Of a stretch of 64,000 nt of DNA, positions 21,257-51,273 are shown one piece after another; the stretch's first letter is position 1; every line of letters starts with the position of its first letter. The stretch is from an uncultured Flavobacteriales bacterium (GTDB lineage Bacteria > Pseudomonadota > Alphaproteobacteria > UBA8366 > JADFVY01), in NCBI GenBank assembly GCA_964347475.1, contig CAYFYY010000015.1, forward strand, positions 877 through 64,876, in the 5' to 3' direction. Position numbers and translations under genes: made by a program. A model generated the notes under the pieces. The model ran no database searches and was not told where the DNA came from. It was given only the letters and a program-made list of their open reading frames with translations.

Positions 21257-21502
21257 CTCTTGTCGCCGCCTTCGGGTGCGCCCGCCGCAGCGTTCCGCAC
21301 CGTATGCTCTTTTCCAATTCTCCGGCCCGCCCAGCCGGCGCCGAGGTGCATAAAAACACCTCTGACAGTGTGGGAATTGAGTCTTTACATTTCGCAAGCG
21401 ATAATTAGCGGTCCGCGGCCGGTTCGCAACCCCTTTTCTCGAAAAATGATCTTACGGCGGGCGGCGTCAATCGGCGCGCCGGCCCGCCAGCGCCGGTGCC
21501 GA

Positions 21503-26215: not shown

Positions 26216-26490
26216 GGTTTTACCCTCTCTATTGCACGTTCCCGGCATAACCCGGCTCTGAAATCCCGGGACTGCCGACTTGGCTTCAAGCAAAGCCGGG
26301 CTGGATCATGCCCCGTTACAGGGCGGCAGCGTAATGGGCGGAAGACGGAAGTGGTCGATGTTTGAAGTCCCATTGGAACCCGACCCTGGGCGGGGGCCGA
26401 AAGTGCGATTCGCATCGGACCTTGGTCGGACTTGTCATGCACGCTCCGCCGTCGGTACTCTTGCGCATTAACGATTTGGGATTAAATGCA

Positions 26491-27921: not shown

Positions 27922-28573
27922 GAAGATCCGCATCGTCGTCGTCGACGACCACCCGCTGTTCCGCGAGGGCGTCGCCACCACCCTGTCCAGCTATCCCGAT
28001 CTCCAGGTGGTAGGTGAGGGGGCCTCGGCCGAGGAGACGCTGCGCCTGGCCCGCGATCTGCTGCCCGACGTGCTGCTGCTCGACGTCAGCATGCCCGGCG
28101 GCGGGGTCGCCGCGGCGCGCGCCGTCGCCGCTGCCTACCCGGTGATCCGCATTATCATGCTGACCGTCTCGGAACATGAGGAGGACGTGCTGCGATCGCT
28201 CAAGGCCGGCGCGCGCGGCTATATCCTGAAAGGCGTGACGGCGCGCGAACTGGTCAATATCGTGCGCGCGGTGCATGCCGGCGAATCCTATGTGACGCCC
28301 AATCTCGCCGCGAGCCTGCTGGCGGACTTCCGGGATGAGGGCAGCGACGCCTCGAGCGAGGACGGGCCACTCGACGAGCTGACGGTGCGCGAGCGGCAAA
28401 TCCTCGAGCTGCTGGCGACCGGCCGCAGCAACAAGGAAATCGCCCGCAGCCTCGAGCTTGCGGAGAAGACCGTAAAGCACTACGTGACCAACATCCTCGA
28501 GAAGCTGCAGGTGCGCAACCGCGTCGAGGCGGCGGTGCTGGCGCAGCGGGTGACCCGGGACCGCACCGGTTGA
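27911..28573 (+). CDS. Response regulator, NarL/FixJ (LuxR HTH) family
   Basis: IRIVVVDDHPLFREG receiver domain, and a C-terminal LTVRERQILELLATGRSNKEIA LuxR-type HTH. Overlaps the kinase stop by 11 nt. Confidence 0.9.
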   Translation: MSTEKIRIVVVDDHPLFREGVATTLSSYPDLQVVGEGASAEETLRLARDLLPDVLLLDVSMPGGGVAAARAVAAAYPVIRIIMLTVSEHEEDVLRSLKAGARGYILKGVTARELVNIVRAVHAGESYVTPNLAASLLADFRDEGSDASSEDGPLDELTVRERQILELLATGRSNKEIARSLELAEKTVKHYVTNILEKLQVRNRVEAAVLAQRVTRDRTG

Positions 28574-28656: not shown

Positions 28657-28733
28657 GGCGGAGTAGCTCAGCTGGTTAGAGCAGCGGAATCATAATCCGC
28701 GTGTCGGGGGTTCGAGTCCCTCCTCCGCTACCA
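28657..28733 (+). tRNA. tRNA-Met (anticodon CAU), elongator-like, CCA encoded
   Basis: Hand-folded cloverleaf. Acceptor GGCGGAG/CTCCGCT, D-arm GCTC-AGCTGGTTA-GAGC, anticodon stem GCGGA/TCCGC with loop ATCATAA (CAT at 28691-28693), T-arm GGGGG-TTCGAGT-CCCTC, ending ACCA. An Ile2 (lysidine) identity cannot be excluded from sequence alone. Confidence 0.9.
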
Positions 28734-28741
28734 ACAAAAAG

Positions 28742-28780
28742 GCCCGTTATGTCAATGGCATAACGGGCTTTCTCTTTGTG
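28742..28780 (+). terminator. Rho-independent terminator after tRNA-Met
   Basis: GCCCGTTATG-tcaatgg-CATAACGGGC followed by TTTCTCTTTGTG. Confidence 0.6.
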
Positions 28781-29345
28781 TGAAAGACGGCATTTGGACG
28801 GTTTCATGTTGCATTTTGTTGCAATGCCTTTGCGTTGATATCCAACGATTTCCAATCGGGCGCGGCGACTCCGTGCGACAAGGATGCAACAAAAACGCTG
28901 CCGGCGCTGGCGACTCACTGGCGAAATTCGAATCGCCGTTGCATGTGGGCGAAGCGGCACGGGTTACGGAGTTTCCAGAAGTCCCGACCACGGGCTACAC
29001 TAGGGTACAAATGCGCCCGGGCGGATCACCGTTCGTCCAGACATTTCCGCTAAGCGACCTGCCGTTGCCAGCCGCGCACGGGGCTTGACGGCAGTGTACA
29101 TAGGACTCATGCTCTCCCGCTAATCGGAGAAGATGCGCCCGGATGGATCACCCGCCCGGGCGTTTCCATTGCGCGAACGCCGTTTGCCAGAGTCACCGAA
29201 TGTGATGTTTCGCCGCCGCCGGTGGCTTCGCGTCGCAGCTGGCCGCGGTGCCGATCAATGTTGCCGCAGTCTCAAAACGGATCGTCCCCGAAGTCGAAAT
29301 TCCGACTTCGGAGCCGGCCGGCATGCCTTTTGGAAGGGAAATATC

Positions 29346-29555
29346 ATGAAGCTTGCCGACGATGTGTTGTCGGGCGTCGCGGCCATCTCCGAATTCACAG
29401 GGGATCCGATGCGGCGGACGTATCACCTCCTCGAAACTGGCCAGTTGCCGGCGTTCAAATTGGGCGGTCGTTGGATTGCCCGGAAATCGAGCATCCTGAA
29501 GCACTTTGAAAAGCTTGAGGAAGGGCAGGACGCCCGCGGCGCCGGGGCGGACTGA
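29346..29555 (+). CDS. Small helix-turn-helix DNA-binding protein (AlpA/excisionase-like)
   Basis: ATG at 29346 behind GGAAGGGA. 69 aa: MKLADDVLSGVAAISEFTGDPMRRTYHLLETGQLPAFKLGGRWIARKSSILKHFEKLE. This is the typical excisionase/AlpA-type winged HTH pattern (...G.LPA.K.GGRW...). Confidence 0.6.
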   Translation: MKLADDVLSGVAAISEFTGDPMRRTYHLLETGQLPAFKLGGRWIARKSSILKHFEKLEEGQDARGAGAD

Positions 29556-29556
29556 G

Positions 29557-29793
29557 ATGGTGTATCGAACACCGCCGGCGGAGCGGAGTGCGCTCGAGAT
29601 CAGGCGCACCGATTTGGACCTGGACCTGACGCGTCTGGGCAATATCGTGCTGCGCCGGCACCGCGAAGTCCGGCAGTCGCGGGGCCGTATTAAGGTGCAG
29701 CGCGTGGAGGAGACACCGCTGGGCCAATGTCTGCCGTCGCCGCAATGGCCGCCGGCAGGTGAAGGGCCGTTGGCGGGGGAGTTGGGGGCATAA
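29557..29793 (+). CDS. Possible small ORF coupled to the HTH gene (unknown; may be a gene remnant)
   Basis: ATG sits 1 nt after the HTH stop (TGAGATG). 78 aa, and its stop lies 1 nt before the first CTGCTAC repeat. No motif recognised; composition is Arg/Pro-rich. Confidence 0.25.
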   Translation: MVYRTPPAERSALEIRRTDLDLDLTRLGNIVLRRHREVRQSRGRIKVQRVEETPLGQCLPSPQWPPAGEGPLAGELGA

Positions 29794-29794
29794 A

Positions 29795-30061
29795 CTGCTA
29801 CGCTGCTACCGAGCTGCTACGCCGTCTGTAGCAGCCAAGTCACGGAAACTCTTGGGAAATATGTGAACTGCTACGCTGCTACGCGTCAAAACACGACTCA
29901 CACGCGCGCGTGAGTCACTGCGTAGCAGTTGCCGAATCCGTAGCAGTTCATGGTTTTCTTAATAGAATCAGTGAACTGGCTGCTACAAAACCTGCTACAG
30001 GCTGCTACGCGCCGACGCTGGTCGGTGAATTGTCACTCTAAATCAGGGAGATAACTGCTAC
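29795..30061. repeat. Iteron-like array: 12 copies of CTGCTAC (9 direct, 3 inverted)
   Basis: CTGCTAC at 29795, 29803, 29814, 29868, 29876, 29980, 29992, 30002 and 30055. GTAGCAG at 29828, 29922 and 29940. Inverted repeat GACTCAC-N8-GTGAGTC at about 29895-29916. AT-rich stretch TTTTCTTAATAGAATCA at about 29954-29970. Confidence 0.85.
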
Positions 30062-30168
30062 GCCACGGCGAAACGAGGGATGAAGGGGATGCACACGAAC
30101 AGAAACAGGGCGGACGGGGTCAACTGGAATGTGCGGCTGTAACCTGATCAGGGCAGACCTCGAGGACG

Positions 30169-30385
30169 GCGCGGGTCCTTCCCGGCCCATGGTCGTTTGC
30201 GGGTACGGCGCGGCGCGGGATGTCGCCAGTGTAGGGGTTCGAGATTCCGGTTAAAGGTGCGGTTAAACCGGTTAAGTCGCGACGCCGAGCGCCGCGGAAC
30301 ACGGCGACGCACGGGTGGACCGCACGGCATCCCTACTAATCTCGCCGATAGCCTCGATGTTCTGTGTCCGTCACGCGAGGAGAAA
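30169..30385. repeat. Copy A of a roughly 220 bp imperfect direct repeat (partner at 42184-42409)
   Basis: Shared blocks: GCGCGGGTCCTTCCCGGCC, TTGCGGGTACGGCGCGG, TGTCGCCAGTGT, TTCGA.ATTCCGGTTAAAGG..CGGTTAAAC.GGTTAA, and CTCGATGTTCTGT. Three GGTTAA hexamers at 30249, 30261 and 30270. Confidence 0.75.
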
Positions 30386-30439
30386 TCTGACCCTGGTTGG
30401 AGAAATCACGGTGATCGCGCATGCGCTTTTGGTGTGGCG

Positions 30440-32249: not shown

Positions 32250-32551
32250 TGGAGAGCGGTCCGGTCCGCATGGGACAGCTTGGCAGTCGCGCATCCGGCG
32301 GGGCTGGACGGGGAACGGGACGAACTGGGCCTGCCCGAAAGACGTGGTATCCGGCCCAATTGAAGCGCGGCTGTCGACCGCGTCCTTTCGACTGGTTGGC
32401 TCTGCAAACAGCAGCATTCCCCCATTGCATGGTTTCCGTCTGCCGAACGCGATGCTGTCTCTTTTGATCCGCGTCGCGACATAGCAGGTTGTCGATGAAT
32501 TCTTGGTATTGTTGCGCGCCGGCGCCTACCTTCTCTTCCAGGAGGCGACCC

Positions 32552-32911
32552 ATGCCCGGGCCACAACGAGACCGCGCCGTTACGATCGAGGGCACCCTGG
32601 AACCCTGGGCGCCGGACATCAATGAGCCCCTGCTGTGGACGATCCACGAGGACGGCAGGGCCGGGCCGGAGGGCGTGCACCCGTTGCTGAACGGGGACCT
32701 TCTCATCGTTTATGACGATGCCAATACGCCGGTCTGGATCGGCATGGTCGAGCTCGAGTTCGACAGCGGTCTGCAGCCGGATCCCCTGGATCCAACGCGC
32801 ATGCGTCAGGCGGCCCGAGGGCGCTGGGTGCATGGTCTGCAGAAAGACGAGGATCCCGAGCTGTGGGCCCGCATGTTTTTCGAACGTCGCCGCGCCGTGG
32901 TGAAACGATGA
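32552..32911 (+). CDS. Hypothetical protein
   Basis: ATG at 32552 behind GGAGG; 119 aa. No motif recognised. Convergent with alr. Confidence 0.4.
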   Translation: MPGPQRDRAVTIEGTLEPWAPDINEPLLWTIHEDGRAGPEGVHPLLNGDLLIVYDDANTPVWIGMVELEFDSGLQPDPLDPTRMRQAARGRWVHGLQKDEDPELWARMFFERRRAVVKR

Positions 32912-32932: not shown

Positions 32933-34090
32933 TCAATCTTGAATCCCGCCGACCGCGACCCGATGCACGCGCTGCGCGATCGCCGTGACGATCTCGTAAT
33001 TGATCGTCCCCAGCTTGTTGGCCAGTTCGTCGGCCGTAATCTCCTCCTCGCCCTGCCGACCGATCAGCACCACCTCGTCGCCCGGCCGCATATGGCCGCG
33101 CAGCGTGGTCACGTCGACGAGGCTCTGGTCCATGGTGATGCGGCCGACCTGCGGGCATCGCCGGCCCCTTACCAGGACATCCATATCGTTGGAGAGCCGG
33201 CGCATCAGGCCATCGCCGTAGCCCACGGGAACGGTGGCGATCAGAGAGTCCCGTTCGGCATGGAACGCGTGCCCGTAGCTCAGACCCGTGCCGGCGGGGA
33301 CCTCTTTCAGGAAGGTGATCCGGCTCTTCCATTCGAGGACCGGCTGCAGCTCCCGGACAAGTGGATTCACGATCTCCGCGGAAGGCCTGAGCCCGTAAAT
33401 CGCAATGCCGGGCCGGACGGCGTCGAAATGCGATTCCGGGAGATCGAGGAGGGCCGCGCTGTTCGCCATATGTCGGAATTCGACCCCGTAACCGCTGGTC
33501 GCTTCGGCGACCTGCCGGAAGCGCTCGAGCTGCGCCAGCGAATAAGCCTTGTCGGTCTCGTCCGCCCGCGGGAAGTGGCTCATCAGTCCGCGCAAGCGCA
33601 ACGCCGGCAGGTTGCGGCAACGCTCGAGGAAGGCCGCGACGTCGTCGGGTCGGACGCCGATCCGCCCCATGCCCGTGTCCACCTTCAGGTGGACCGGGAC
33701 GGGCCGTTCCGCCGCTTCCGCAGCACGCGCCAGCGCCTCCGCCATCTCCAGCGTGCAGATGACGGGCTCGCAGTGATGGGCGACGATCGCCTCTGCGTGC
33801 TCCGGCAGCGTCGCGGAAAGGATGACGAAGGTGGCGTCGATGCCGGCTTCCAGCAGGGCGGCGGCCTCGAAGACATGCGCCACGCACAGCGTATCGTAGC
33901 CGAGCCGGACCAGCTGCCGGGCGATGATCTCGGCGCCGTGACCGTAGGCGTTTGCCTTTATCGCCGGCCACAACGGCCGTCCGCCGGCTGCCGCCCGCAG
34001 CAGGCGTATATTGTGCGCCAAGCGGCCGAGATGGATCTGCGCCTTGGTCAGATGCGAATCGCGGGGGCCGCTTGCCAGGGGTTCCTCCAT
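32933..34090 (-). CDS. alr: Alanine racemase (PLP-dependent)
   Basis: ATG at 34090; 385 aa. AIKANAYGHG PLP-lysine motif and the C-terminal YEIVTAI block. Confidence 0.8.
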   Translation of the reverse strand: MEEPLASGPRDSHLTKAQIHLGRLAHNIRLLRAAAGGRPLWPAIKANAYGHGAEIIARQLVRLGYDTLCVAHVFEAAALLEAGIDATFVILSATLPEHAEAIVAHHCEPVICTLEMAEALARAAEAAERPVPVHLKVDTGMGRIGVRPDDVAAFLERCRNLPALRLRGLMSHFPRADETDKAYSLAQLERFRQVAEATSGYGVEFRHMANSAALLDLPESHFDAVRPGIAIYGLRPSAEIVNPLVRELQPVLEWKSRITFLKEVPAGTGLSYGHAFHAERDSLIATVPVGYGDGLMRRLSNDMDVLVRGRRCPQVGRITMDQSLVDVTTLRGHMRPGDEVVLIGRQGEEEITADELANKLGTINYEIVTAIAQRVHRVAVGGIQD

Positions 34091-34094
34091 CGGC

Positions 34095-35192
34095 TCACGC
34101 CCCGGTCTCGCTGCGTGCCGCTTCCGGCATGGTCCGCTTCTCAACGTATTCCGAGGTCATCGCCGCGACGAGGGCGGCGTAATTCGGCGAGAATGCGATC
34201 TCGTCGCCCACATGAATGCTGCCCTTCGCTTGCGTGGCGTCCAGGATCAGGTAGCCGCTGGAGGCGCCCAGTATGGTCAGCCGCCTGTCGAGCGGGGTCA
34301 GGCCCCCGATATCCACGTCCTCGCGGCCGATATTGAGGAGAGCTCGATCGATGTCGCCTCGGTCCGCGAAGCGTGGCGTTGCGCCGAAGGCGTCTTCGCC
34401 GCGCTCTCCGACTGGAACCGACGGCTTGCGTTTCAGTTCCAGGACCTCCGCGTGGAGCAGGAACGCGTCTTGATACGTGCCGGCCCAGGGCCGCCGACGA
34501 ACGGTCTCGCGGCCGAGCAGGATCGCCTCGCCGATCCTCGCGTGGTTGACCCGTTTCGGCATCCGCCCGACGGCGATGAGCTCGAGCGCGCTGGAATTGC
34601 AGCCGGAGATCCATTCGAAATCGAGCCCCAGATCCTCCTCGACCTGCCGGGCGCAAGCGACCAGCCGGCTCATGTTCTCCTCCGACGGCACCACCCCGCC
34701 GAAGCAGGACAGATTCGTGCCCAGCCCGATGATCCGGATGCCCGGCAGCTTGACCGCGTCGGCCATGAAAGGGAGGAGCGCGTCGGGCCAGACGCCCTCG
34801 CGCAGGTCGCCGAGGTCGGTCATGACGATGACGTCGTGTGCTTTGCCGGTGCGCTCTGCCGCCGCCGAGAGACCGGACAGGATCGCAAGCTCGCTGTTGA
34901 GGCTGATCTCAACCGAACCGACGACCTCGTCCACGGCCGACAGCGGAGGCACCCGTATGAGCATCAAGCGCGCAGCCACCCCCGCCTGCCTGAGGCGTCG
35001 GATGTTCCTCATCCGCGAATCCCCGATCGATGAGACGCCGCCCCGCAGCATGGCAATCGCCACCTCCGGATGGCCGCAGACGCCTTTCGTTATGCCCGTC
35101 ACCTCGATCCCGTGCGCCCGGCACAGGTCGACAATCGTTTTCGCATTGTGTTCGATCTTGCCGAGATCGATGGTGAGATAGGGGCCAGCCAT
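34095..35192 (-). CDS. orr: Ornithine racemase-like PLP enzyme (alanine racemase N-domain, COG3457-type)
   Basis: ATG at 35192; 365 aa. GITKGVCGHPEVA (PLP Lys region) and TIM-barrel racemase-like blocks. Sits directly downstream of oraE, as in the described ornithine cluster. Confidence 0.65.
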   Translation of the reverse strand: MAGPYLTIDLGKIEHNAKTIVDLCRAHGIEVTGITKGVCGHPEVAIAMLRGGVSSIGDSRMRNIRRLRQAGVAARLMLIRVPPLSAVDEVVGSVEISLNSELAILSGLSAAAERTGKAHDVIVMTDLGDLREGVWPDALLPFMADAVKLPGIRIIGLGTNLSCFGGVVPSEENMSRLVACARQVEEDLGLDFEWISGCNSSALELIAVGRMPKRVNHARIGEAILLGRETVRRRPWAGTYQDAFLLHAEVLELKRKPSVPVGERGEDAFGATPRFADRGDIDRALLNIGREDVDIGGLTPLDRRLTILGASSGYLILDATQAKGSIHVGDEIAFSPNYAALVAAMTSEYVEKRTMPEAARSETGA

Positions 35193-35214
35193 CGCACTGC
35201 CCTTCCGGTGCGTC

Positions 35215-37410
35215 CTAACTCTGTTCCGATGCGCGCAGCTTTCGCACCAGGAAGCTGGCCACGTCCCGGCCGGTCGTACCGCGTCCGAACCCCGCGTCGA
35301 GGCCGCAGGCGCGTGCCAGGTCATCGGTCACTTGCGTACCACCGGCCACCAGCAAAAGCCGCGGGCGCAAGTTGCGTTCCGTGGCCAATTCATGGAGACG
35401 ACGCATGTTCGCCGTATGGACATCGGCATGGGTGATGATCGTAGAAATAAGCACGGCCCGGGCGCCGGTCTCTGTCGCGGCATCGAGAATTCTCTCCAGC
35501 GGTACGGACGTGCCAAGGTAATGGCAATGGAAGCCGTATTTCTCGATCCCGCCATGCTTGATATCGAGGATTTCGCGCAGGCCCACCGAGTGCTCGTCCT
35601 CGCCGACCGTCGCCGCGACGACGTGGACGCCGCGGGGACGCACCCAGGCCTCGATCTCCGCATCCGGCAGTGGTTGCTCGCGCTCTGCCAGCGAAAGGTC
35701 GTCGATCCTGAGGGCGACTTCGAGAACGCCCTTGATCTCGAAAACGCTGCCCTCCGCCGGGTGCATGATCCGCCGGCTGATAATCTCGGGGTCTCGGAGT
35801 CCCATATGTCGGGCCATTTCAAGCGCCGCGGCCTCGCCCACGCGCGGGCTCTCGGGTACGAACAGGGTGACGCACACAACACCGTCGCCGTGTCGCTCGA
35901 CCTCGGGCCGCAGCAGGCCCTCCGCCCGTTCCGCCAGTGGCGTCTCGAGCCGCCTGTCCACGTTGTCGTCGGGATCCAGCTCGTCGATATAGCGGATCTT
36001 CGAGGGATCGCACAGCGTGCAGCCGCCGTAGTCGTCGCAGGGTTTTCCCGTATCCGTCGCGTAGCTGTTGTCCCCGAAATGGCTGCATACCGGAGCGCCG
36101 TAGCCCGCTTTGCGCGGGACCGTGCTTCCCGCGCCGCTTCCGCCATACTCATCGCGCACGATACCGTCGGCCTTGCGCTCCGGATAGTAACCGGAATCGA
36201 CGAACTGACCGGCCTCGACCGCCGCGTAATAGCCGCCGTTTTCGATAATCTCTTCGAGGAAAAGAACGGCGCGCTCCTTCAGCTCCCGCACTGTGCGGGG
36301 CAACTCGCCGTCTTGGCGGATTTCGATCTGCTCCATCAGCCCGTCGACGCCCATCAGGGTCTGTCGGGCCGCGTTTACCCCCGCCACGTTGTTGTAGTGC
36401 CAGGGAATGTTGCGCCCTTCGTCCGGCGTGATCGTGCTCTGGATATCGGCCGAGGTCAGGCGCGAGATAAGCGTATCGAGCACATGCGTGACGGTGGCCT
36501 CCATCGTGTCGGACTCGACGTAGCGCGTGTTCTGTTGCGCCCGGAACCGGTAGCCCTTGAAGATGTCGCGAAGCGCCACCGCGTAGGGCAGGTCGAGGCG
36601 TAATTTCGGGGCCGGTGGCGCGGTCGGCGGCACGGTAGACAGGCCGATCTGGCCGGGCGCCATGCCCGCCTTCCGCGAGTACGCGGTGTTGATGCCGTGC
36701 TGCACGAACAGCTCGGGCGTGACTTTCCAGGCTTGCTTCGCCGTGGCGTTGGCGTTGTGCGCGCCGTCGATCTGCAAGAGGCCGCCATCCGCCATGATCT
36801 TCTTGGCCTCCGCCGCATCGACGAAGGAGCGGTGCATGTTGATGTTGCGATAGAGCACATTGTACTGCGGGTCCTGGTGGGCCCCGTTGACGCCTTCCTC
36901 GACGAAGAGGACGGCCATTTCCGGCCCGGCGAGGCCGCTGACATAGGAGTGGAAATTGATCGGCCGCCCCACCTCCTCCTCGATCGCGTCCAGCGCCTTG
37001 CGGCTGGCGCGAAGCTGCTTGCGCGTGATCGGAATGCCGCCGACACCTTCCGGCGTACCCTCGATCAGACCGTCGATATGGGACTGGCCGGTGGTCCGGA
37101 TGACCATGATGTGGTCGGCGCCATGCCAGGCCGCCATGCGCATTCGGCGCAGATCGTCCTCGAACCGCCCCGATGCGATCTCGGTGGTGATCACGAAGTC
37201 GCATTGCGGGTCGATATCGCCGACCGCATGCGCCGAGGGGAGCGGGATGGAGCGGTCGAGAGTCTCGGAGGTGTCCTTGTAGACGAAGGGGCCGATTTGC
37301 TGGTCCTCGACTTTGTGGCGCCAGGTCCATCCCTTGCGCTTCGGGCGATATTTGCCGAGGTCCTTCAGGACCTCCCGCAGGTCGAGTTTCCGGTCCGCCG
37401 CGAGCTTCAT
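35215..37410 (-). CDS. oraE: D-ornithine 4,5-aminomutase, large (E/beta) subunit, B12- and PLP-dependent
   Basis: 731 aa. The C-terminal B12-binding domain has the DxHxxG motif (EDEHSVG). Size and partner small subunit match OraE/OraS. Confidence 0.8.
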   Translation of the reverse strand: MKLAADRKLDLREVLKDLGKYRPKRKGWTWRHKVEDQQIGPFVYKDTSETLDRSIPLPSAHAVGDIDPQCDFVITTEIASGRFEDDLRRMRMAAWHGADHIMVIRTTGQSHIDGLIEGTPEGVGGIPITRKQLRASRKALDAIEEEVGRPINFHSYVSGLAGPEMAVLFVEEGVNGAHQDPQYNVLYRNINMHRSFVDAAEAKKIMADGGLLQIDGAHNANATAKQAWKVTPELFVQHGINTAYSRKAGMAPGQIGLSTVPPTAPPAPKLRLDLPYAVALRDIFKGYRFRAQQNTRYVESDTMEATVTHVLDTLISRLTSADIQSTITPDEGRNIPWHYNNVAGVNAARQTLMGVDGLMEQIEIRQDGELPRTVRELKERAVLFLEEIIENGGYYAAVEAGQFVDSGYYPERKADGIVRDEYGGSGAGSTVPRKAGYGAPVCSHFGDNSYATDTGKPCDDYGGCTLCDPSKIRYIDELDPDDNVDRRLETPLAERAEGLLRPEVERHGDGVVCVTLFVPESPRVGEAAALEMARHMGLRDPEIISRRIMHPAEGSVFEIKGVLEVALRIDDLSLAEREQPLPDAEIEAWVRPRGVHVVAATVGEDEHSVGLREILDIKHGGIEKYGFHCHYLGTSVPLERILDAATETGARAVLISTIITHADVHTANMRRLHELATERNLRPRLLLVAGGTQVTDDLARACGLDAGFGRGTTGRDVASFLVRKLRASEQS

Positions 37411-37760
37411 CGGACGAGGTCCTCCCAGAAGCGTCCCGCCAGCAACGCGTCTCCCGCTTCGCGCGGGGCGATCCGCCTGGCCTTCGCCAGTTCGAGGACC
37501 AGGCGTCCCGCGCCATGGCCGAGAAGATTGCGCTCCTGCATCATGGCCACGAGGTTGCCGGCCTCGATGCTGGAAAAGCCCATCCGCAGCAGCACCGAGC
37601 GCTCGATGGATGGCGTCGTACGGGTCCGGGCCTCCGCGACCAGCGGTTCGACGATCTTTTCGACGAGTTGCCAGAAGTAGTTGTGAAGATCCTCGTCCGA
37701 CATGTCCTTGAGCCGGGCACGGCGCTTCGCGAAATCGTCCGGTCGTTCAACGCATGTCAT
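37407..37760 (-). CDS. oraS: D-ornithine 4,5-aminomutase, small (S/alpha) subunit
   Basis: 117 aa, overlapping the oraE start by 4 nt. Size and position match OraS. Confidence 0.75.
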   Translation of the reverse strand: MTCVERPDDFAKRRARLKDMSDEDLHNYFWQLVEKIVEPLVAEARTRTTPSIERSVLLRMGFSSIEAGNLVAMMQERNLLGHGAGRLVLELAKARRIAPREAGDALLAGRFWEDLVR

Positions 37761-39159
37761 CGATCACCTTCCGCACATAGGATTGGTCGGACCGGGTCTC
37801 GTCGGCCAGGAACGCGAAATCGGATTCGGTCAATTGTTCGCCTTCCGCCAGCGAGGCGATGGCATTGCGCAGATAGGAGCGTCGGACGTGATCGAGATCC
37901 AGGTCGACCACGGCGATCTGCGACGGATGCTCGGGAATGACGATGGCCCGGCCGGGCCTGTTGTTTCTCGGATCGCCGCGCACGACCGCAATGCCCAGCC
38001 GCTTGGCGAGGTTCAGCTGCGCGATCGGATGCTTGCCGGCACCGGTGTACTCGGTCTCCTGGACGACGAGGATGCGGTCCTCGTCCATCATGCGCGCGAT
38101 GGCGAACGCGGCGGCGAGCGAGGTGTTGCCGGCCGCGCCCCGGTCCAGCCCCTCGAGTTCCGCCAGCACCTGCGTCATGTAGAACACCTCGCCCTGGGTC
38201 ACGGTGACGAAGCGGTCGATATAGCGCAGCGGGCGGGCGGCGTTTCGCGGCACGTCGGCCCGGTCCGGCCAGGTCGTAAACGGCACCGAGAAGCCGGTAT
38301 GGCCGGTGGTGAAGGACTTCCTGTTGAAGTCATGGTCGGAGGCCATGTGGAGCCCGGCGAGATCGACGCTGACCGCGACGATTTCGGTTTCGGCGGCGCC
38401 GGCTTTCCGCAATCCGCGGGCCGTGCCGGTGACATTGCCGCCGCCGGCATGGGTGACTGCGACGACGTCGGGAAAGCGCCCGGTCCGCTCGCGCACCTGC
38501 TGGGCCAACTCATACCCGAGCGTCTCGATGCCGAGGATCGAGTATGGCGTATACAGCGATGCGTTGAAGTATCCGGTTTCCTCGAGCACTCTCAGAAACA
38601 CGTAGAACAGCTCCGGCCCGACCGAGAGCCGGATGACTTCGGCGCCATAGGCCTCGCAGGCCCGGGTCTTCTCCGCGATCTCGGGCTGGGCGATGCCCTC
38701 GCTGTCGAAAGCCTCCTGCACGACGATGCAGCGCAGGCCCGCCTTGGCGGCCTGCGATGCGACGGCCGCGCCGTAATTGCCGCTGGTCGCGGCGGCGACG
38801 CCGTCGTAGCCGCGCTTCCTGGCCTCGTGGACCGAGAGCGAGGCCCGCCGGTCCTTGAACGAGCCCGACGGGTTCCTGGCCTCGTCCTTGACGAAGATGC
38901 GGGCGCCCTTGCCGGGGTCCGCAACGCAGCGAACGACCTCGGTGATGTTCTCGAGTTCGACGAGCGGCGTCTCGCCGACCGCCGTGCGGCTCTGCACCGC
39001 CCGCGCCGTATCGATGTCGTAGCCGGTGTCGGCCAGCAGGCGCTCGTAATCGAAGGCCAGCGCGCCCGTCGCATATTGCTGGTAATCGAGGCCGATGGCA
39101 TCGCGCACGATCTCGCCTCGCCGGGCCATGATTTCCGCGTAGCCGGGCCTCGGTTTCAT
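37747..39159 (-). CDS. ortB: 2-amino-4-ketopentanoate thiolase, beta subunit (PLP, Trp-synthase-beta fold)
   Basis: 470 aa with the PLP lysine motif NPSGSFKDRRAS and a GGGN glycine loop. Overlaps oraS and ortA. Confidence 0.75.
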   Translation of the reverse strand: MKPRPGYAEIMARRGEIVRDAIGLDYQQYATGALAFDYERLLADTGYDIDTARAVQSRTAVGETPLVELENITEVVRCVADPGKGARIFVKDEARNPSGSFKDRRASLSVHEARKRGYDGVAAATSGNYGAAVASQAAKAGLRCIVVQEAFDSEGIAQPEIAEKTRACEAYGAEVIRLSVGPELFYVFLRVLEETGYFNASLYTPYSILGIETLGYELAQQVRERTGRFPDVVAVTHAGGGNVTGTARGLRKAGAAETEIVAVSVDLAGLHMASDHDFNRKSFTTGHTGFSVPFTTWPDRADVPRNAARPLRYIDRFVTVTQGEVFYMTQVLAELEGLDRGAAGNTSLAAAFAIARMMDEDRILVVQETEYTGAGKHPIAQLNLAKRLGIAVVRGDPRNNRPGRAIVIPEHPSQIAVVDLDLDHVRRSYLRNAIASLAEGEQLTESDFAFLADETRSDQSYVRKVIDDMR

Positions 39160-39470
39160 CGGATGCGTCCCTTGTCCCGCAGCATGGCGCGGACCTCGCC
39201 GCCGATGCCTGTGAGCTCCGCGATCGGCGGGCCGAAGCCATGGGTGTAGGCGGGATTGACAGCGCTGAGCGTGCCGCGAAGGCGGCGTCCGGCCGGGGTC
39301 ACGATCGTAACGTCCTCGCCGAGCACCGCGGGCTCGGCGAGAAATCCCTTCGCGCGCATCTCCAGAGGCAGCTGCCGGGTGTCGTCTGGAACCTGCGGCG
39401 CGCGGCCTCCGGCGGGCAGCACGATACCGTGGATCTCGACCCAGGTCCCCTTGGCGACCGGCTCAGCCAT
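39156..39470 (-). CDS. ortA: 2-amino-4-ketopentanoate thiolase, alpha subunit
   Basis: ATG at 39470; 104 aa. A small protein between ord and ortB, overlapping both. Assignment rests on size and synteny. Confidence 0.65.
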   Translation of the reverse strand: MAEPVAKGTWVEIHGIVLPAGGRAPQVPDDTRQLPLEMRAKGFLAEPAVLGEDVTIVTPAGRRLRGTLSAVNPAYTHGFGPPIAELTGIGGEVRAMLRDKGRIR

Positions 39471-40530
39471 GTCGCCGCTCCCGGAGCCGCTCGTGGACAA
39501 GGCCGCGGGCATCGCCCAGCATCGCCGCCGGGACCGGCAGATCCGCCATCCCGTGCAGGCCGGGATCCGCATTCAGGACTCGCGGGATCATGTTCACGGC
39601 GAGGGCCGCGGTGGCCTCTCCGCCCGGGATTTCCGGGCGTCCCGAAAGGCGCAGGTTCGGGGTTCCCGTGATCTCGATGCTGTCGCCGGTCTCGATACCC
39701 TCGAGTCCCGGATGGATCTGCTGCGGATGGATCAGCGTGATGACGGGCTGGCCGTTGCGGTAGGCGACCGCGGTGTGCAGGCAGCCCGCGACCTGGCCCG
39801 GCTCGACCGTAACGACGGGCGTCTCGCGCCGGACCTGCGTGACGATGGGCTCGCGGCTCTCCTCGATGCGGTCGATCTCCCAGCCGATGGCATCCGCGAT
39901 CATGCGAATCGAGTCCGGGAAGCCGATATGGCCGACGACGCGGCCGTGCTCGAGCCCCTCCCGGAACGCGCGGGGCGTCAGGCCGACGCCCTGGCTCGCC
40001 AGGACCGACGGGCCGTAGGGCGAGAGGTCGTTGCTGCGCTTTGCGGTAATGGACTCGATGGCGGCGCACACGCCGGTGAGGGCGATGACGAGAAGGTCGA
40101 ACACGAAACCGGGATTGACGCCGGTTCCGAGGGCGGACACGCCCTTGGCAACGGCCAGGCGATCGATCTCCGCGGCGATCTCCGGGCCGTGATGCGCGGG
40201 ATAGGCCATCTCTTCGGCGATCGAGATCACATGGACGCCACGATCCAGCAGCGTGACGATCTCATCCCTGGCATCGACCAGCCGCGAGCAGGTCGCATGT
40301 ATCGCGACCTCGGGCCGTGCCGCATCGGTCACGCCGGCCAGGTCGTTGGCGATCGCCAGGCCAAGATCGCGCTCCAGTCCGATTGCCCGGCCGAGATCCG
40401 TGCCGGCGCGCGCCGCCCGCCGGCCGTATGCGCCGACGAGGTCGAGCCCCTTCTTGCACAGAACGAGGCGGGCTATCCTGCTCCCCATCTGGCCCGTCCC
40501 GACCACCAGGATCCGGATCGGATCGCGCAT
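39463..40530 (-). CDS. ord: 2,4-diaminopentanoate dehydrogenase (DapB-like NAD(P) oxidoreductase)
   Basis: 355 aa with the N-terminal Rossmann motif IRILVVGTGQMGSRI. First gene of the ord-ortA-ortB-oraS-oraE-orr string. Confidence 0.7.
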   Translation of the reverse strand: MRDPIRILVVGTGQMGSRIARLVLCKKGLDLVGAYGRRAARAGTDLGRAIGLERDLGLAIANDLAGVTDAARPEVAIHATCSRLVDARDEIVTLLDRGVHVISIAEEMAYPAHHGPEIAAEIDRLAVAKGVSALGTGVNPGFVFDLLVIALTGVCAAIESITAKRSNDLSPYGPSVLASQGVGLTPRAFREGLEHGRVVGHIGFPDSIRMIADAIGWEIDRIEESREPIVTQVRRETPVVTVEPGQVAGCLHTAVAYRNGQPVITLIHPQQIHPGLEGIETGDSIEITGTPNLRLSGRPEIPGGEATAALAVNMIPRVLNADPGLHGMADLPVPAAMLGDARGLVHERLRERRHG

Positions 40531-40596
40531 GCGTGAGCCTTTCTGTCGCTTCCAGCAGGGCGGCGCCGGCCGGCCGCCGCAATGCGTCGCCGCGAG

Positions 40597-41085
40597 TCAC
40601 CCGATGGGAATGCGCCGTCCGGCTGTCGGCTTGCCGGGCGCGGCCTTGGGCAGGACGATCGTCAGCGTCCCCCGGCGATAGGTGGCCTTGATCCCGGCCT
40701 CGGCGATCGCCGGTCCGATGGCGATCGCCCGCTCGAAGCGGCCGAACTCGCGCTCCCGCAACGCATGGTGCTGGTTCTTGGCCTCCGGCGGGATCTCATT
40801 GTCGCCGCAGATGCTGAGGATGCCGCCGCCGAAGGTGACGTCGATTTCGTCTGGCGCCACGCCCGGCAGCTCGACCTGGACGGTGACCGCGTCCGCGTCT
40901 TCGGCGACGTCCATCTGCGGCGACAGGTCGATGCCGGACACCGGGCGCGCCGTCGGCGAGCCGAGGCCGCGCCAGTAGTCCTCGACCGTCTCGGTCATCG
41001 CCTGGCGCAGGTCTTCCAGGGGGCGCGGCACGTGCCGCGGCGCCCATGCCCTCCAGTACCAAATCGGGGGTCCTCGATCAGCCAT
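40597..41085 (-). CDS. Small heat-shock protein (Hsp20/alpha-crystallin)
   Basis: 162 aa from the ATG at 41085. Alpha-crystallin core: DVAEDADAVTVQVELPGVAPDEIDVTF...REREFGRFERAIAI...ATYRRGTLTIVLPK. Confidence 0.8.
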   Translation of the reverse strand: MADRGPPIWYWRAWAPRHVPRPLEDLRQAMTETVEDYWRGLGSPTARPVSGIDLSPQMDVAEDADAVTVQVELPGVAPDEIDVTFGGGILSICGDNEIPPEAKNQHHALREREFGRFERAIAIGPAIAEAGIKATYRRGTLTIVLPKAAPGKPTAGRRIPIG

Positions 41086-41298: not shown

Positions 41299-41544
41299 AT
41301 GGCTCACACGCACGAGCGCCTGATCGCGCAGTTCCCGCGCTACGAGCGGCAGATCCGCGAGCTCGCCGCATCGGATGCGGAATTCGACGAGCTCGCGGCC
41401 GAGTACGAGACTCTGCGCAGCGAGATCCACGACCTGGAAGCGTCCGGCGACGTCGGGCCCGATTACACGGATCTCTGCGATCGCCGCGACGATCTGCAGG
41501 AAACGCTGGTCATCATGATGCAGGAAGCCGAGAGCGCCGCCTGA
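41299..41544 (+). CDS. DUF465 (YdcH-like) small coiled-coil protein
   Basis: 81 aa. IRELAASDAEFDELAAEYETLRSEIHDLE... is the typical DUF465 pattern. Confidence 0.6.
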   Translation: MAHTHERLIAQFPRYERQIRELAASDAEFDELAAEYETLRSEIHDLEASGDVGPDYTDLCDRRDDLQETLVIMMQEAESAA

Positions 41545-42183: not shown

Positions 42184-42409
42184 GCGCGGGTCCTTCCCGG
42201 CCGGGCGCCAATTGCGGGTACGGCGCGGTGCGGGTTGTCGCCAGTGTCGGTGTTCGAAATTCCGGTTAAAGGCCCGGTTAAACAGGTTAAATCAAGAGGT
42301 TAAGGTCGACGCCGGGAGTCGCAGATCATGGCGGTGTGCCGGGTCGGAGCGCCACCGATTCGATTTCGCCGACATTCTCGATGTTCTGTTTCCGCATTTC
42401 GACGAGAAA
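42184..42409. repeat. Copy B of the roughly 220 bp imperfect direct repeat (partner at 30169-30385)
   Basis: Same conserved blocks as copy A. Four GGTTAA hexamers at 42264, 42276, 42285 and 42298. Confidence 0.75.
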
Positions 42410-42713
42410 GCGCAGCTTGGCTGTAAGAACAGCCCGCCATGCATGATCTATCAAAGACGGAACTTGAACCGAGCAGTCGCAGGTTCAAATCGGGGGCCCG
42501 CAACCACCTATGCCGAACACGTTTGAGGTGGGGCCGACGGTCCGCTCTAGAGCCCGCTACGTACATGAGCGATCCTCGCTCCTAACCGCAGCTTTTAGCG
42601 AGGAGCCGTCGATTCGCGATCCCGGCCATTACCCGTAACGTCGCTTGTAACAGGCTCTGCATATGCCGCTTTTGGGCGCGATCATGATAGATCGGTAACC
42701 GGGTCGGACGACA

Positions 42714-43664
42714 TCAGCCCACGGCCGCAGCGAACACCCGCATGAAATTCCCGCCGCTGATCTTTTCGATGTCGGCCCGTGCCATGCCGCGCGCCCGCAG
42801 CGCATCGGGGATCACGTAAAAGGCGGAATAATCGTCCCAGACCGGCGCGCGGACGGCATCCATATCGGTGCCGATGCCCACATGATCGACACCGACCGCG
42901 TCGGTGAGCCGGACGATATTGTCGATGTAGTCGTCGAAATCATCGACGGCGAGCCGCGTCGCCCAGGCACCGATCATGCCGCCGGTCGAGGCGATCAGCC
43001 GCGCATGGTCTTCATCGATGCAGCGCGGGTGCCGGTCGCCCAGAATGCTGTGCGACAGGATGATCGGTCGATCGGTCGCACGAACGACGCCCTTCACCGT
43101 CTCGAAGGTGGCGTGCGCCACGTCGACGAGGATGCCGAGCCTGGCGCATTCCCCGACGACGTCGCGACCGAACGCCTTCAAGCCGCCATGGCGCGGCAGT
43201 TCGGTCTGGATATCGCCGAGCTCGTTGATCCGGTAGTGGACGAGCTGCATCACACGCACGCCACGGCCATGGAAGTGTGCCACGCGATCGACCCGTCCCT
43301 CGAGGCAGTCGAGACCCTCGATCGCCGCAACGATCGCGCCGCCCGTCTCCCGCAACCCCTCGATATCGGCAACCGTCGCCGCCGGCCACGTGCCGGCGCG
43401 TCGGCATGTCTCCCACAACGCATCGAGATCGCTCTCGGCGCCGTCGAACAGCTCGCCCGGTTGGGGCTCGCGCAACAATCGCAATCCCCGGTCCGTCATG
43501 CCGATGACGCTGCGGTCGCCGATCACCGCCGCAATGCATGCGGTCATGCCGCCCCGGCGCATCTCCTCGATCCGCGCCACGCCGCATGCCGGATCCTCGA
43601 AGAACCGCCCGAGATGGCAGTGACTGTCGATGGCGTAAGCGACGCCGCCCCGGCCGGACGTCAT
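42714..43664 (-). CDS. Membrane (renal-type) dipeptidase family protein, peptidase M19
   Basis: 316 aa. Metal-ligand-like motifs IDSHCHL, VDVAHAT and ILSHS, with M19-like spacing. Confidence 0.7.
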   Translation of the reverse strand: MTSGRGGVAYAIDSHCHLGRFFEDPACGVARIEEMRRGGMTACIAAVIGDRSVIGMTDRGLRLLREPQPGELFDGAESDLDALWETCRRAGTWPAATVADIEGLRETGGAIVAAIEGLDCLEGRVDRVAHFHGRGVRVMQLVHYRINELGDIQTELPRHGGLKAFGRDVVGECARLGILVDVAHATFETVKGVVRATDRPIILSHSILGDRHPRCIDEDHARLIASTGGMIGAWATRLAVDDFDDYIDNIVRLTDAVGVDHVGIGTDMDAVRAPVWDDYSAFYVIPDALRARGMARADIEKISGGNFMRVFAAAVG

Positions 43665-43700
43665 CGCAGCTCCTCCATTATCCGCCCCATATTGGCCGCG

Positions 43701-44573
43701 TCACGGCGTTGCCGCCGACTTGACCGCAAGCGCCGCGGCCCAGTCCGCAATGATCGCGCTGAGCCGGGTCAGGTCCGCCTGCAGGCTTGCGAACCCGGGC
43801 GTCGGTTCGACCCGCGCCTCGTCGAGGTAGAGCGCCCGGTTGATCTCGATCTGCAGGCTGTGGATTCCACCTGCCGGATCCGCATGGCGGCGCAGGACGC
43901 CGCCGCCGGCATACGGCTCGTTCACCGACACCGAGTAGCCGAGCGCGCGCAGGCTTTGGGCGACCAGCGCGGTCAGGCCAGAATCGCAGGCGGTGCCATG
44001 CAGATCACCGATCACGAAATCAGGCCGCCGCACGCCCGGACCATCCGGCGTGTTGGCGTTGCCGACGGATTTCATCGAGTGCCAGTCGACATGACAAACC
44101 GCGCCGAACATGCCGCGCAGGTCCTTCAATCGCGATGCCAGTGCCTCGTGGTAGGGCCGATGATAGCGCGCGACCCTCGCCGTGACCTCGCCATAGCTGA
44201 GCAGCCGGTCGTAGATACGGTGCTCGGGAACCACATCTCGGCGGATGAGGCCGATCCCGCGCCGGCTCTTGTCGCTCTGCCGAAAGGCGTCAGCCGGCGC
44301 ATCCGCGACAAGTGCCGGATCGACATCGTCCTCATCGCGGTTCGGGTCGATATAGCAACGGGGGAACAGGGCCTTGAGCACCGTCACCCCGCTGGCCGGC
44401 GCGCCCGCCAGCAACCGGTCCACATACGCGTCCTCGCCGCGCCGCAAGATCTCCAGCGGCAACGCCGATCCGAAATCCTCGGGGTAATCACGCCCGCTGT
44501 GCGGCAGGTCGAACAACACCGCCCTCGCCGAAGCAGACGGTCGCACGATCTCGAGAACACCGGGGACGATCAC
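43701..44573 (-). CDS. N-formylglutamate amidohydrolase family protein (FGase), copy 1
   Basis: 290 aa. LFDLPHSGRDYPEDF and HVDWHSM motifs. Confidence 0.7.
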   Translation of the reverse strand: MIVPGVLEIVRPSASARAVLFDLPHSGRDYPEDFGSALPLEILRRGEDAYVDRLLAGAPASGVTVLKALFPRCYIDPNRDEDDVDPALVADAPADAFRQSDKSRRGIGLIRRDVVPEHRIYDRLLSYGEVTARVARYHRPYHEALASRLKDLRGMFGAVCHVDWHSMKSVGNANTPDGPGVRRPDFVIGDLHGTACDSGLTALVAQSLRALGYSVSVNEPYAGGGVLRRHADPAGGIHSLQIEINRALYLDEARVEPTPGFASLQADLTRLSAIIADWAAALAVKSAATP

Positions 44574-45433
44574 GGTATCCGCTCCCCCACGTAGTCGGCG
44601 ACAACGGCGATCAGCCGCGTCACATTTGCCTGGAGCGCAGCGAACCCGCCATTCCGCTCCAGGCCCGCCTCATCCATGTACAGGGCCCGGTTGATTTCGA
44701 TCTGCAGGCTGTGCCGCCCGGCCGCCGGGTCCGACCAGGCGCGCACCAGTTCGGCGCCCTTGTACGGGTCGTTGATCGTCACCTCGTAACCGAGATCGGA
44801 GAGAATCTCGCGGACCAGCGCGGTGAACTCCGCCGAGCAGGTCGTTGCATCGATATCGCCCAACGTGATGTCGGGGCGGCGCATGCCGGGGCCTTCCGCC
44901 GCCATAACAGTGCTCACCGACGGCATGGAATGACAGTTGACGTGCCAGACGGCGCCGAAGCCCCGATAAAGCCGATCCAGCGCGCCGGCAACTGCGTCGT
45001 GATAGGGACGATGATAGGTCTCGATTCGCCGGCGCAGCTCGGCGACCGTAAGCTTTCGATCATAGATCGGATCGCCCGGCGGGCAGAGACGCCAGACCAG
45101 TCCGACGCCAAGATCAGATTTCGGCCCGGGAGCACTCTCTTCCGGCCAGTCCTCTTCAAGCAGCGCCGGATCGATATCGAGCGCGGAGCGGTTGGGGTCA
45201 ATGTAGATGCGCGGGAACAAAGCGCCGATCAGCGTCGCGCCGTACGCAGGCGCTGCCGCGTAGAGCTCGTCGACGAAGCTGTCCTCGGATTGTCGCATTT
45301 GCCTGCGCGGCGCGACGTGGTCGAAATCGTCGGGATAGGCCGCGCCGCTATGCGGCGAGTCGAACAGGAGCGGCAGCGCCTCGTCGCGCGGCCCGCGCTC
45401 GAACAGAACACCGGACAACTCCCTGTCGGGCAT
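44570..45433 (-). CDS. N-formylglutamate amidohydrolase family protein (FGase), copy 2
   Basis: 287 aa. LLFDSPHSGAAYPDDF and HVNCHSM. Paralogous to copy 1, with a 4 nt overlap. Confidence 0.7.
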   Translation of the reverse strand: MPDRELSGVLFERGPRDEALPLLFDSPHSGAAYPDDFDHVAPRRQMRQSEDSFVDELYAAAPAYGATLIGALFPRIYIDPNRSALDIDPALLEEDWPEESAPGPKSDLGVGLVWRLCPPGDPIYDRKLTVAELRRRIETYHRPYHDAVAGALDRLYRGFGAVWHVNCHSMPSVSTVMAAEGPGMRRPDITLGDIDATTCSAEFTALVREILSDLGYEVTINDPYKGAELVRAWSDPAAGRHSLQIEINRALYMDEAGLERNGGFAALQANVTRLIAVVADYVGERIP

Positions 45434-45436
45434 GTG

Positions 45437-46453
45437 TCAGGCCGTTCCTTCGTTCAGATGACAGGCCGATTTCCGGCCCGGCGCGATTTCTCTCAAAATC
45501 GGGCGCTCTTCCGCGCAACGCGCGGTCGCGTGCGGGCAGCGCGGATGGAAATGGCAGCCCGTGGGTGGATCCAGCGGCGAGGGAATCTCGCCTCTTATGG
45601 CGGAGAATTTCGCGTGCCGCTGATCAAGGCGGGGAACCTCCTGCAACAGGGCCTGGGTATAGGGATGATTCGGACTGTCGAACAATTCTTCGGTCAGGCT
45701 CGACTCGACGACGCGGCCGAGATACATGATCACTATGCGGTCGCTGATATGCTCGACCACCCCCAAATCATGACTGATGAAAAGGTAGGTGAGGCCGAGT
45801 TCCTCGCGCAGCCGCATGAACAGGTTCAGTATCTGCGCCTGAATCGAGACGTCGAGCGCCGCCACCGCCTCATCGCAGACGATAAGATCGGGGTTGACGG
45901 CCAAAGCCCTGGCGATTCCGATCCGCTGCCGTTGACCACCGGAAAACTGGTGCGGATACCTGCGCTTGAATTCGGGGTCCAGACCGCAGCGCAGCATCAC
46001 GTCTTCGATATAGGCATCGGTGTTGGCGCGACTGACCAGCCCGTGCACCCGCGGGGCCTCGCCGATGATGTCCTTGACCCGCAGCCGAGGGTTGAGCGAG
46101 GCGAACGGATCCTGGAAAATCATCTGGATCCTGAGCGCCATGTCCCTCGTCTGCAGCGCATCCAGCGTACGGATATCGCGGCCCTTGTAGAAATAGGTGC
46201 CTTCGCTGGGCTCCAGGATGCCGGCGACCATCCGGCCGAGCGTGGATTTGCCGCAACCGGACTCGCCCACGAGTCCAACCACCTCTCCCGGCTGGATCGC
46301 AAGGTCCACCTCATCCACCGCATGGACGACCTCCTCGCGTATGCTCGATCCCATATAGCGTGCGATCCTGGCCGCGACATCCAGCGACTTGACGAAGCGC
46401 TTGCCGATTCCGCGCAAATCGATATAGGGTGCTGGGCTCGCGGCGTCGCTCAT
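45437..46453 (-). CDS. Peptide ABC transporter ATP-binding protein (DppF/OppF-like)
   Basis: ATG at 46453. Walker [10 protein letters not shown], signature FSGGQRQR, and the C-terminal oligopeptide domain CHFHPRCP. Confidence 0.9.
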
Positions 46454-49336: not shown

Positions 49337-49410
49337 CCCGCTCCAACCGCCTCAAGAGACGCGGGTGGCGGGGCGGCGTTGCCGCCACCCCGCTCCCAAT
49401 CGTCGAGCCA

Positions 49411-51075: not shown

Positions 51076-51273
51076 ATCGTTGTCTCCCTGTCACGGGTTG
51101 GTCGCGAGATCAGCTCGGCCACCCGGTTCTCTGGTTCGTACTGGATATGTCCCTGATGGTCCCCATGGTGGACCTATCTCGTCATTTGACACCGTTTATT
51201 TCGGCGACACAACCCATTGCGTTCGGAACCCGGCTGCGCGAACATCCGCCCGTCAGACCGCCGGGAGGCGACC

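Follow-up and report, generated by a model that had tools for sequence, protein, structure and literature searches.

A 64,000-nucleotide (nt) stretch of contig CAYFYY010000015.1, referred to here as the window, carries the seven genes ord-ortA-ortB-oraS-oraE-orr-alr, which probably form one operon for the oxidative breakdown of ornithine and belong to a distinct clade of the aminomutase subunit OraE whose loci lack a MutL-type gene. The result is mainly a clean annotation: an uncultured alphaproteobacterium encodes the whole B12-dependent operon for ornithine catabolism. Listed from ord onward, the genes are as follows (lengths in amino acids, aa; PLP, pyridoxal phosphate).

39463-40530, minus strand: ord, 2,4-diaminopentanoate dehydrogenase, 355 aa (NF040740 and PF19328)
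39156-39470, minus strand: ortA, small subunit of 2-amino-4-oxopentanoate thiolase, 104 aa, ATG at 39470 (NF040739)
37747-39159, minus strand: ortB, PLP-dependent subunit of 2-amino-4-oxopentanoate thiolase, 470 aa (NF040741)
37407-37760, minus strand: oraS, D-ornithine 4,5-aminomutase small subunit, 117 aa (PF16552)
35215-37410, minus strand: oraE, adenosylcobalamin- and PLP-binding large subunit of D-ornithine 4,5-aminomutase, 731 aa (NF040743)
34095-35192, minus strand: orr-type fold-III PLP racemase, presumed ornithine racemase, 365 aa, ATG at 35192
32933-34090, minus strand: alr, alanine racemase, 385 aa, ATG at 34090 (TIGR00492)

With hsp20, a small heat-shock gene upstream of ord, these make eight co-directional and mostly overlapping genes on the minus strand between 32933 and 41085, and the open reading frame (ORF) listing agrees with the sizes proposed in an earlier interpretation of the letters alone (the sequence-only reading). 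Adjacent genes overlap by 8 nt (ord/ortA), 4 nt (ortA/ortB), 14 nt (ortB/oraS) and 4 nt (oraS/oraE), and gaps of 22 nt and 4 nt separate oraE from orr and orr from alr. The ORFs of the orr-like gene and of alr reach 35324 and 34144, and are thus longer than the adjusted starts given above. Because Pfam and NCBIfam families match every gene of the cluster over its full length, we regard the cluster as intact. A promoter and terminator scan gave counts at or below shuffle expectation, and an Rfam search of the window returned a tRNA as its sole match, even at E = 1, with no cobalamin riboswitch.

When comparing the translations with NCBIfam equivalog models (curated cut-offs in brackets), we found that Ord scored 455.3 bits with ornith_Ord, NF040740 (400 bits; model positions 1-335 of 335), OrtA 114.1 bits with ornith_OrtA, NF040739 (70 bits; positions 1-93 of 93), OrtB 789.6 bits with ornith_OrtB, NF040741 (550 bits) and OraE 1224.9 bits with NF040743 (800 bits), all four matches covering the whole models. 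Ord also matches PF19328 (DAP_DH_C, E = 8e-96) and holds a GTGQMG dinucleotide-binding motif, OrtA matches PF22010 as well, and OraS is recognized by PF16552 (OAM_alpha, E = 3.7e-44, 149.7 bits for a cut-off of 29.7). Two motifs picked out in the sequence-only reading, the SFKDR lysine motif of the 470-aa protein and DEHSVG of the 731-aa protein, are both present. OraE aligns end to end with the Clostridium sticklandii ornithine aminomutase structure 3KOW at 1004 bits, and three motifs are identical in that alignment: the cobalt-ligand motif DEHSVG (His607), DIKHGG (Lys618) and TPDEGRN (Glu331, all in window numbering). The PLP lysine of DIKHGG is Lys629 in the literature (PMC4256349) and the TPDEGRN glutamate is Glu338 (PMC4413051); the roles of the cobalt-ligand histidine, the PLP lysine and Glu338 in the aminomutase are taken from the same two studies. 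A different aminomutase, such as lysine 5,6-aminomutase, acting in a cluster that degrades another diamino acid, is practically untenable as an alternative: the TIM-barrel domain of OraE does also match the Pfam lysine-aminomutase family PF09043, but the lysine models NF052384 and NF052385 reach only 149.1 bits (cut-off 600) and 138.1 bits (cut-off 280), both failing, the best lysine 5,6-aminomutase chain (KamD) gives 116 bits against 1004 for 3KOW, the fused alpha/beta architecture with OraS is specific to ornithine aminomutase, and Ord, OrtA and OrtB are dedicated downstream enzymes. OraE therefore does not group with the lysine enzymes, a check that the sequence-only reading had itself named. 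KamD and KamE share the radical B12/PLP chemistry and have related TIM-barrel and Rossmann domains; they are separate chains, whereas the window's OraE is fused and has OraS as its partner subunit.

The two racemases complete the set. Orr keeps the conserved place of its gene after oraE, is 41-50% identical to Firmicutes Orr proteins, and has a Lys36 and a Cys163 that are invariant across all 61 cluster-linked homologues aligned; in ornithine racemases a Lys/Cys catalytic pair replaces the Lys/Tyr pair of alanine racemase (PMC13397332). We presume that it is an ornithine racemase. Alr scores 351.5 bits with the TIGR00492 alr equivalog (cut-off 168) and matches both PF01168 and PF00842, so that the added classical alanine racemase of the sequence-only reading, predicted here to be a genuine one, stands, and it proves to be a recurrent, co-inherited seventh gene (see below). 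A Lys/Cys catalytic pair like that of the window's Orr is also found in the Salmonella STM2358 ornithine racemase operon (PMC13397332), where the accompanying genes encode a D-ornithine/D-lysine decarboxylase and transporters instead of an aminomutase, a dehydrogenase and a thiolase.

The central claim of that reading, a clostridial-type oxidative ornithine pathway of six enzymes in the clostridial order, is supported by the equivalog scores and by direct comparison with a clostridial locus. In Clostridium (Acetoanaerobium) sticklandii and Clostridioides difficile the cluster is given as ord-ortA-ortB-oraS-oraE-(mutL-like)-orr (Fonknechten et al. 2009, as cited in PMC13397332; PMC8803604). The locus of Acetoanaerobium noterae (the genus of C. 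sticklandii), found by tblastn of the plasmid collection on a mislabelled 2.6-Mb replicon, reads ord-ortA-ortB-oraS-oraE-mutL-orr, and protein identities to the window are 45% for Ord, 52% for OrtA, 61% for OrtB, 52% for OraS, 61% for OraE and 41% for Orr. Thus the six enzymes, their order and the OraE cofactor-binding motifs are the same in the classical cluster and in the window. They differ in three respects: the classical cluster has a MutL-type (PF13941) gene between oraE and orr, and the window lacks one across its 64 kb; the window appends alr, unlike the clostridial cluster; and the host is an uncultured high-G+C alphaproteobacterium instead of a Gram-positive amino-acid fermenter.

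Based on family membership and on the pathway steps as given in PMC8803604 and PMC13397332, Orr would racemize L-ornithine to D-ornithine, and OraS/OraE, with adenosylcobalamin and PLP, would shift the 5-amino group to yield 2,4-diaminopentanoate. Ord would then carry out an oxidative deamination to 2-amino-4-oxopentanoate, NAD(P)H and ammonia, and OrtA/OrtB would cleave this product with coenzyme A (CoA) to acetyl-CoA and alanine. Alr would interconvert D- and L-alanine, making the product usable in central metabolism. The likely role would be anaerobic or low-oxygen use of ornithine for energy, carbon and nitrogen, with the ornithine supplied in many relatives by arginine or citrulline breakdown. 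Elsewhere in the window we found a 2-oxoacid:ferredoxin oxidoreductase and multihaem cytochromes, which fit an organism that meets anoxia or low oxygen. The oxidoreductase is encoded by two genes (18352-21397) and adjoins a 771-aa multihaem cytochrome (21964-24279) that resembles ExtM/MtrC-type proteins; its magnetochrome match is weak and below threshold.

To place the cluster among its relatives, we scanned for OraE in one genome per species and found that at least 516 stretches encode a relative, of which 80 loci were kept (L001-L080); the eight window proteins were mapped onto these and onto five metagenome loci, L084 and L085 being duplicates of L003. OraE relatives number in the thousands. 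The best 120 are all 78-99% identical, come in the named cases from Binatia, Alphaproteobacteria, Deltaproteobacteria, Deferrimicrobiaceae and Planctomycetota, and are for the most part already labelled as ornithine aminomutase. Gene order is kept almost everywhere among the mapped loci, with the same order in at least 60 loci other than the window. The loci most similar to the window have orr directly after oraE, and the others usually have a gene of about 1.4 kb between the two, which Pfam assigns to MutL (PF13941), the family of the glutamate-mutase-associated factor. By tblastn, 45 loci have MutL, whereas all 29 sequences of the window's group (28 loci and the window) lack it. No MutL-type reactivase homologue was found in the 64-kb window itself, the best tblastn match having E = 1.3, in agreement with the sequence-only reading, which had seen no aminomutase reactivase there.

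In a neighbour-joining tree of OraE, the whole MutL-less group falls into one clade with a bootstrap of 98/100. Its nearest sister clades (Desulfobacterales, Thermodesulfobacteriota and a spirochaete) have mostly kept MutL, and in these clades and in Firmicutes, as well as in Desulfobacterota, the PF13941 gene adjoins oraE, usually between oraE and orr. The pattern suggests that MutL was lost once. Among the members of the clade are Nitrosomonas, Sedimenticola and Thiogranum metagenome-assembled genomes (MAGs), the isolate Methylomicrobium lacus (L016; NZ_CP169217), and further Alpha-, Beta-, Gamma- and 'Delta'-proteobacterial genomes, Binatia and Deferrimicrobiaceae. Like the window they lack MutL and have the same gene order, and their OraE proteins are 73-84% identical to that of the window. 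Among the roughly 24 clade loci with enough downstream sequence, 17 have alr after orr, at 63-77% identity to the window alr; since this range parallels that of OraE across classes, this alr travels with the cluster and is distinct from the housekeeping gene.

Such a cluster is not an unusual find in a proteobacterium, given the 516 or more stretches, many of them proteobacterial and auto-annotated. That of the window is one more ordinary example of a known pathway, which automatic annotation can already recognize, with modest architectural variation. The literature attributes the pathway to anaerobic Firmicutes, Actinobacteria and Thermotogae (PMC13397332), and our search found no paper describing it in Proteobacteria, only in Firmicutes and allies. 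The clade thus seems to be widespread yet little discussed, and to have lost a MutL-type accessory gene while commonly carrying its own alr. Sequence data now place the pathway in hundreds of species, including this well-supported proteobacterial clade, and offer a possible anaerobic energy route in organisms usually deemed strict respirers; the MutL-less members could show, as a natural experiment, whether the aminomutase depends on a reactivase.

Two variants outside the common arrangement were also seen among the mapped loci. Five Halanaerobiales MAGs (L039, L045, L053, L056 and L059) have no orr within the fetched sequence, carry mutL between ortB and oraS, and have after oraE a gene that resembles alr (40-42% identity to that of the window); this alr-like enzyme might serve as the ornithine racemase. 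In Olavius Delta 3, a gutless-worm symbiont (L020:12256-16791), three genes are inserted between oraE and mutL-orr, encoding saccharopine-dehydrogenase-like and alanine-dehydrogenase-like proteins and an aldehyde:ferredoxin oxidoreductase.

When the families of 150 ORFs flanking the cluster in 37 related loci were counted, the result pointed to arginine and citrulline catabolism, with AA_kinase (12) and OTCace (7) the commonest families, compared with Usp (3), alanine dehydrogenase (2) and Cpn60 (2). By tblastn, carbamate kinase and/or ornithine carbamoyltransferase genes lie beside the cluster in 10 clade loci (about one third) and in 13 others. As these two enzymes make L-ornithine and ATP from citrulline, the cluster appears to have been coupled repeatedly to arginine/citrulline fermentation. 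The window differs from that third of the clade in having neither neighbour. A P-loop protein of about 450-470 aa (L006:16910-18322) recurs beside ornithine carbamoyltransferase, carbamate kinase and the ornithine cluster in Proteobacteria and in Firmicutes-type loci, with homologues in about 16 other loci (L005, L008, L013, L019, L031, L046, L050 and L073 among them); it belongs to no curated family and has weak LpxK, CobW and HypB matches.

A bolder interpretation, which we put forward only tentatively and judge more likely wrong than right, is that the MutL-less, alr-bearing clade represents a self-sufficient arginine/ornithine fermentation module that spread horizontally among respirers (nitrifiers, methanotrophs, sulfur oxidizers and the alphaproteobacterium of the window), with an aminomutase that evolved independence from reactivase and an hsp20 link that reflects a survival response. 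If so, the module would give these organisms substrate-level ATP in anoxia, one ATP through ornithine carbamoyltransferase and carbamate kinase and a second through acetyl-CoA. The clade's aminomutase would have evolved to function without a dedicated reactivase, and in the window's lineage the module, sitting behind the stress gene hsp20, would be tied to survival.

Several observations weigh against the operon being a functional route for ornithine in this organism. The NF040742 racem_Orr score of Orr, 402.8 bits, falls under the curated cut-off of 480. The 64-kb window revealed neither carbamate kinase nor ornithine carbamoyltransferase, nor a transporter for ornithine or arginine, and the genes scanned in it included no adenosyltransferase or cobalamin family. 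Suicide inactivation is described for ornithine aminomutase (PMC3958899); lacking a MutL-type gene, the system may be less robust, or another part of the genome may encode a reactivase. Two papers also disagree on which form of alanine is released, D-alanine in PMC13397332 and L-alanine in PMC8803604; a co-inherited alr fits D-alanine, and to this extent gene context supports D-alanine as the thiolase product, though PMC8803604 writes the L form.

The presence of two racemases within one operon could instead suggest that it mainly scavenges D-amino acids (D-ornithine, or D-alanine from peptides) and does not ferment L-ornithine, with Orr and Alr as entry and exit racemases supplied by the adjacent peptide-uptake genes. 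Just upstream, on the same strand, are genes for an M19 dipeptidase, two FGase-family amidohydrolases and a Dpp-type ATP-binding cassette (ABC) importer, and M19 enzymes can cleave dipeptides that end in a D-residue. However, this peptide locus lies outside the block that the window has in common with L081 (its closest long relative), the FGase genes have no counterpart beside other clusters, and the recurrent neighbours elsewhere, carbamate kinase and ornithine carbamoyltransferase, produce L-ornithine. In addition, Orr is retained in all complete clade loci, which implies an L-ornithine input. We therefore consider scavenging unlikely as the main role and favour the breakdown of L-ornithine. 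The peptide-utilization locus as a whole (42714-53772) comprises the M19 dipeptidase, two tandem FGase-family paralogues that score well under the HutG cut-off, and DppFDCBA, and ends with a divergent M81/MlrC-like peptidase and an AstE/AspA-like hydrolase. On its other flank the cluster is followed by genes for an M54 peptidase, a PCMT and a DJ-1/PfpI protein.

We next consider the genes immediately bordering the seven, of which hsp20 had been said to head the cluster.

40597-41085, minus strand: hsp20, small heat-shock protein, 162 aa (PF00011, E = 7e-16)
32489-32911, plus strand: orf140, convergent 140-aa ORF beside alr, 64% identical to L081:10783-11160 in the same relative position
41302-41544, plus strand: small divergent 80-aa ORF upstream of hsp20, 79% identical to L081:1733-1960

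The 66-bp distance between hsp20 and ord on the same strand, as first reported, is correct. In L081, whose OraE is 84% identical, an Hsp20 gene lies 65 nt upstream of ord and its product is 70% identical; the block common to the window and L081 runs from orf140 through alr...ord and hsp20 to the small divergent ORF at 75% DNA identity, and the outer flanks differ. Neither orf140 (no match in Pfam or NCBIfam) nor the 80-aa ORF (no match in a family search) could be assigned. The description of the cluster as headed by hsp20 did not survive wider comparison, as L081 is the only other locus of 87 with hsp20 upstream of ord: no match beside the cluster was found in L001-L080, L082 or L083, and L083, the next relative after L081, belongs to the window's own subclade (bootstrap 96/100). 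Thus hsp20 is a neighbour specific to a narrow lineage and not part of the pathway, although it may be co-transcribed with the operon.

It is improbable, in our estimate, that hsp20, transcribed together with the operon, encodes a chaperone which protects or restores the aminomutase in place of the missing MutL-type factor. The short same-strand gap, with neither a terminator-like site nor a stable hairpin in a spacer that folds no better than shuffled sequence, would allow it, as would the conservation of the arrangement in L081 while the outer flanks differ, and stress-type genes (Usp, Cpn60) do occur near the cluster in a few other loci. These make up only 3 and 2 of the 150 neighbouring ORFs, though, the sequence of the hsp20-ord spacer is unconserved between the window and L081, and hsp20 is not beside the cluster in 83 other distinct loci, L083 included. 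Small heat-shock proteins are also ATP-independent holdases, whereas the known B12-enzyme reactivases use ATP. A broader stress or dormancy island, prompted by Hsp20, Usp, Cpn60, a hibernation factor and BON proteins near the clusters of L081, L082 and L084, was rejected as a general feature on the same Usp and Cpn60 counts, carbamate kinase and ornithine carbamoyltransferase being the dominant neighbours.

Sequence self-comparison of the window revealed a pair of direct repeats around the region that contains the operon.

30169-30400, no strand: left copy of the direct repeat, about 230 nt
42184-42425, no strand: right copy of the direct repeat, about 230 nt

The copies are 74-85% identical, with a core at 85% over 110 nt. 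From such a bracketed block the sequence-only reading had proposed horizontal acquisition. The repeats are real, and spread of the clade between lineages is supported by OraE proteins that span several phyla at about 80% identity, but this spread appears to be ancient: the GC3 (G+C at third codon positions) of the cluster genes, 0.77-0.85, is within the range of the other window genes, and a base composition that matches the host suggests that any transfer is old. The alphaproteobacterial background inferred in that reading is supported by the best named MnmA relatives (72-100% identical), which are all Alphaproteobacteria, Rhodospirillales or Pseudomonadota MAGs. What fails is the bracket itself, as the repeats enclose unrelated genes with no integrase or transposase and are absent from L081.

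A recently acquired mobile island, ending at the two repeats and inserted near the tRNA-Met gene, is accordingly very improbable. Besides the repeats, it would draw on the tRNA-Met (28657-28733) followed by a gene-poor stretch of lower G+C with a weak HTH_17 (excisionase-like) ORF, on contigs of relatives that lose synteny or end just after mnmA, and on the taxonomically mixed OraE clade. Yet the repeats enclose the unrelated M54 peptidase, PCMT and DJ-1/PfpI genes and no gene for an integrase, transposase or relaxase, the 3' end of the tRNA is not repeated elsewhere in the window, and the HTH_17 match reaches 21.6 bits for a Pfam cut-off of 27. The host-like GC3 argues against recent arrival, the block in common with L081 spans only orf140 to the small ORF beyond hsp20 and excludes the repeats, and the plasmid collection gave no match. 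Carriage on a plasmid was likewise rejected, since OraE matched only the mislabelled 2.6-Mb Acetoanaerobium replicon and the gene-poor flanks had no plasmid match.

Each repeat copy lies just 3' of the last gene in a minus-strand run (the M54 peptidase and the M19 dipeptidase), and the core holds three or four GGTTAA motifs (TTCCGGTTAAAGGnnCGGTTAAACnGGTTAA). No copies beyond the two were found in the window, nor any in the fetched loci or the plasmid collection; the copies have no Rfam match and fold no better than shuffled sequence. The repeat may serve as a binding site for a protein, and the window encodes a NarL-type regulator at 27788-28573. The adjacent two-component system (HisKA_3/NarL type, 26362-28573) was considered as a source of DosR-like control, a candidate that was rejected, the similarity being generic to the NarL family and under the cut-offs.

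The tRNA-Met and the approximately 1.5 kb of gene-poor, lower-G+C sequence after it (28657-30170) include the HTH_17 ORF at 29343-29555 and a 49-nt inverted repeat (29827-29875 / 29939-29987), and this stretch may be the remnant of an integrated element. In two loci found as MnmA relatives (L086 and L088), upstream synteny is partly kept (rml genes, a sulfotransferase, cytochromes and mnmA), and the contigs end or diverge less than 2 kb past mnmA, so that relatives may vary in the region that holds the ornithine cluster, the tRNA and the two-component system. In L088, too, mnmA is flanked by multihaem cytochromes.

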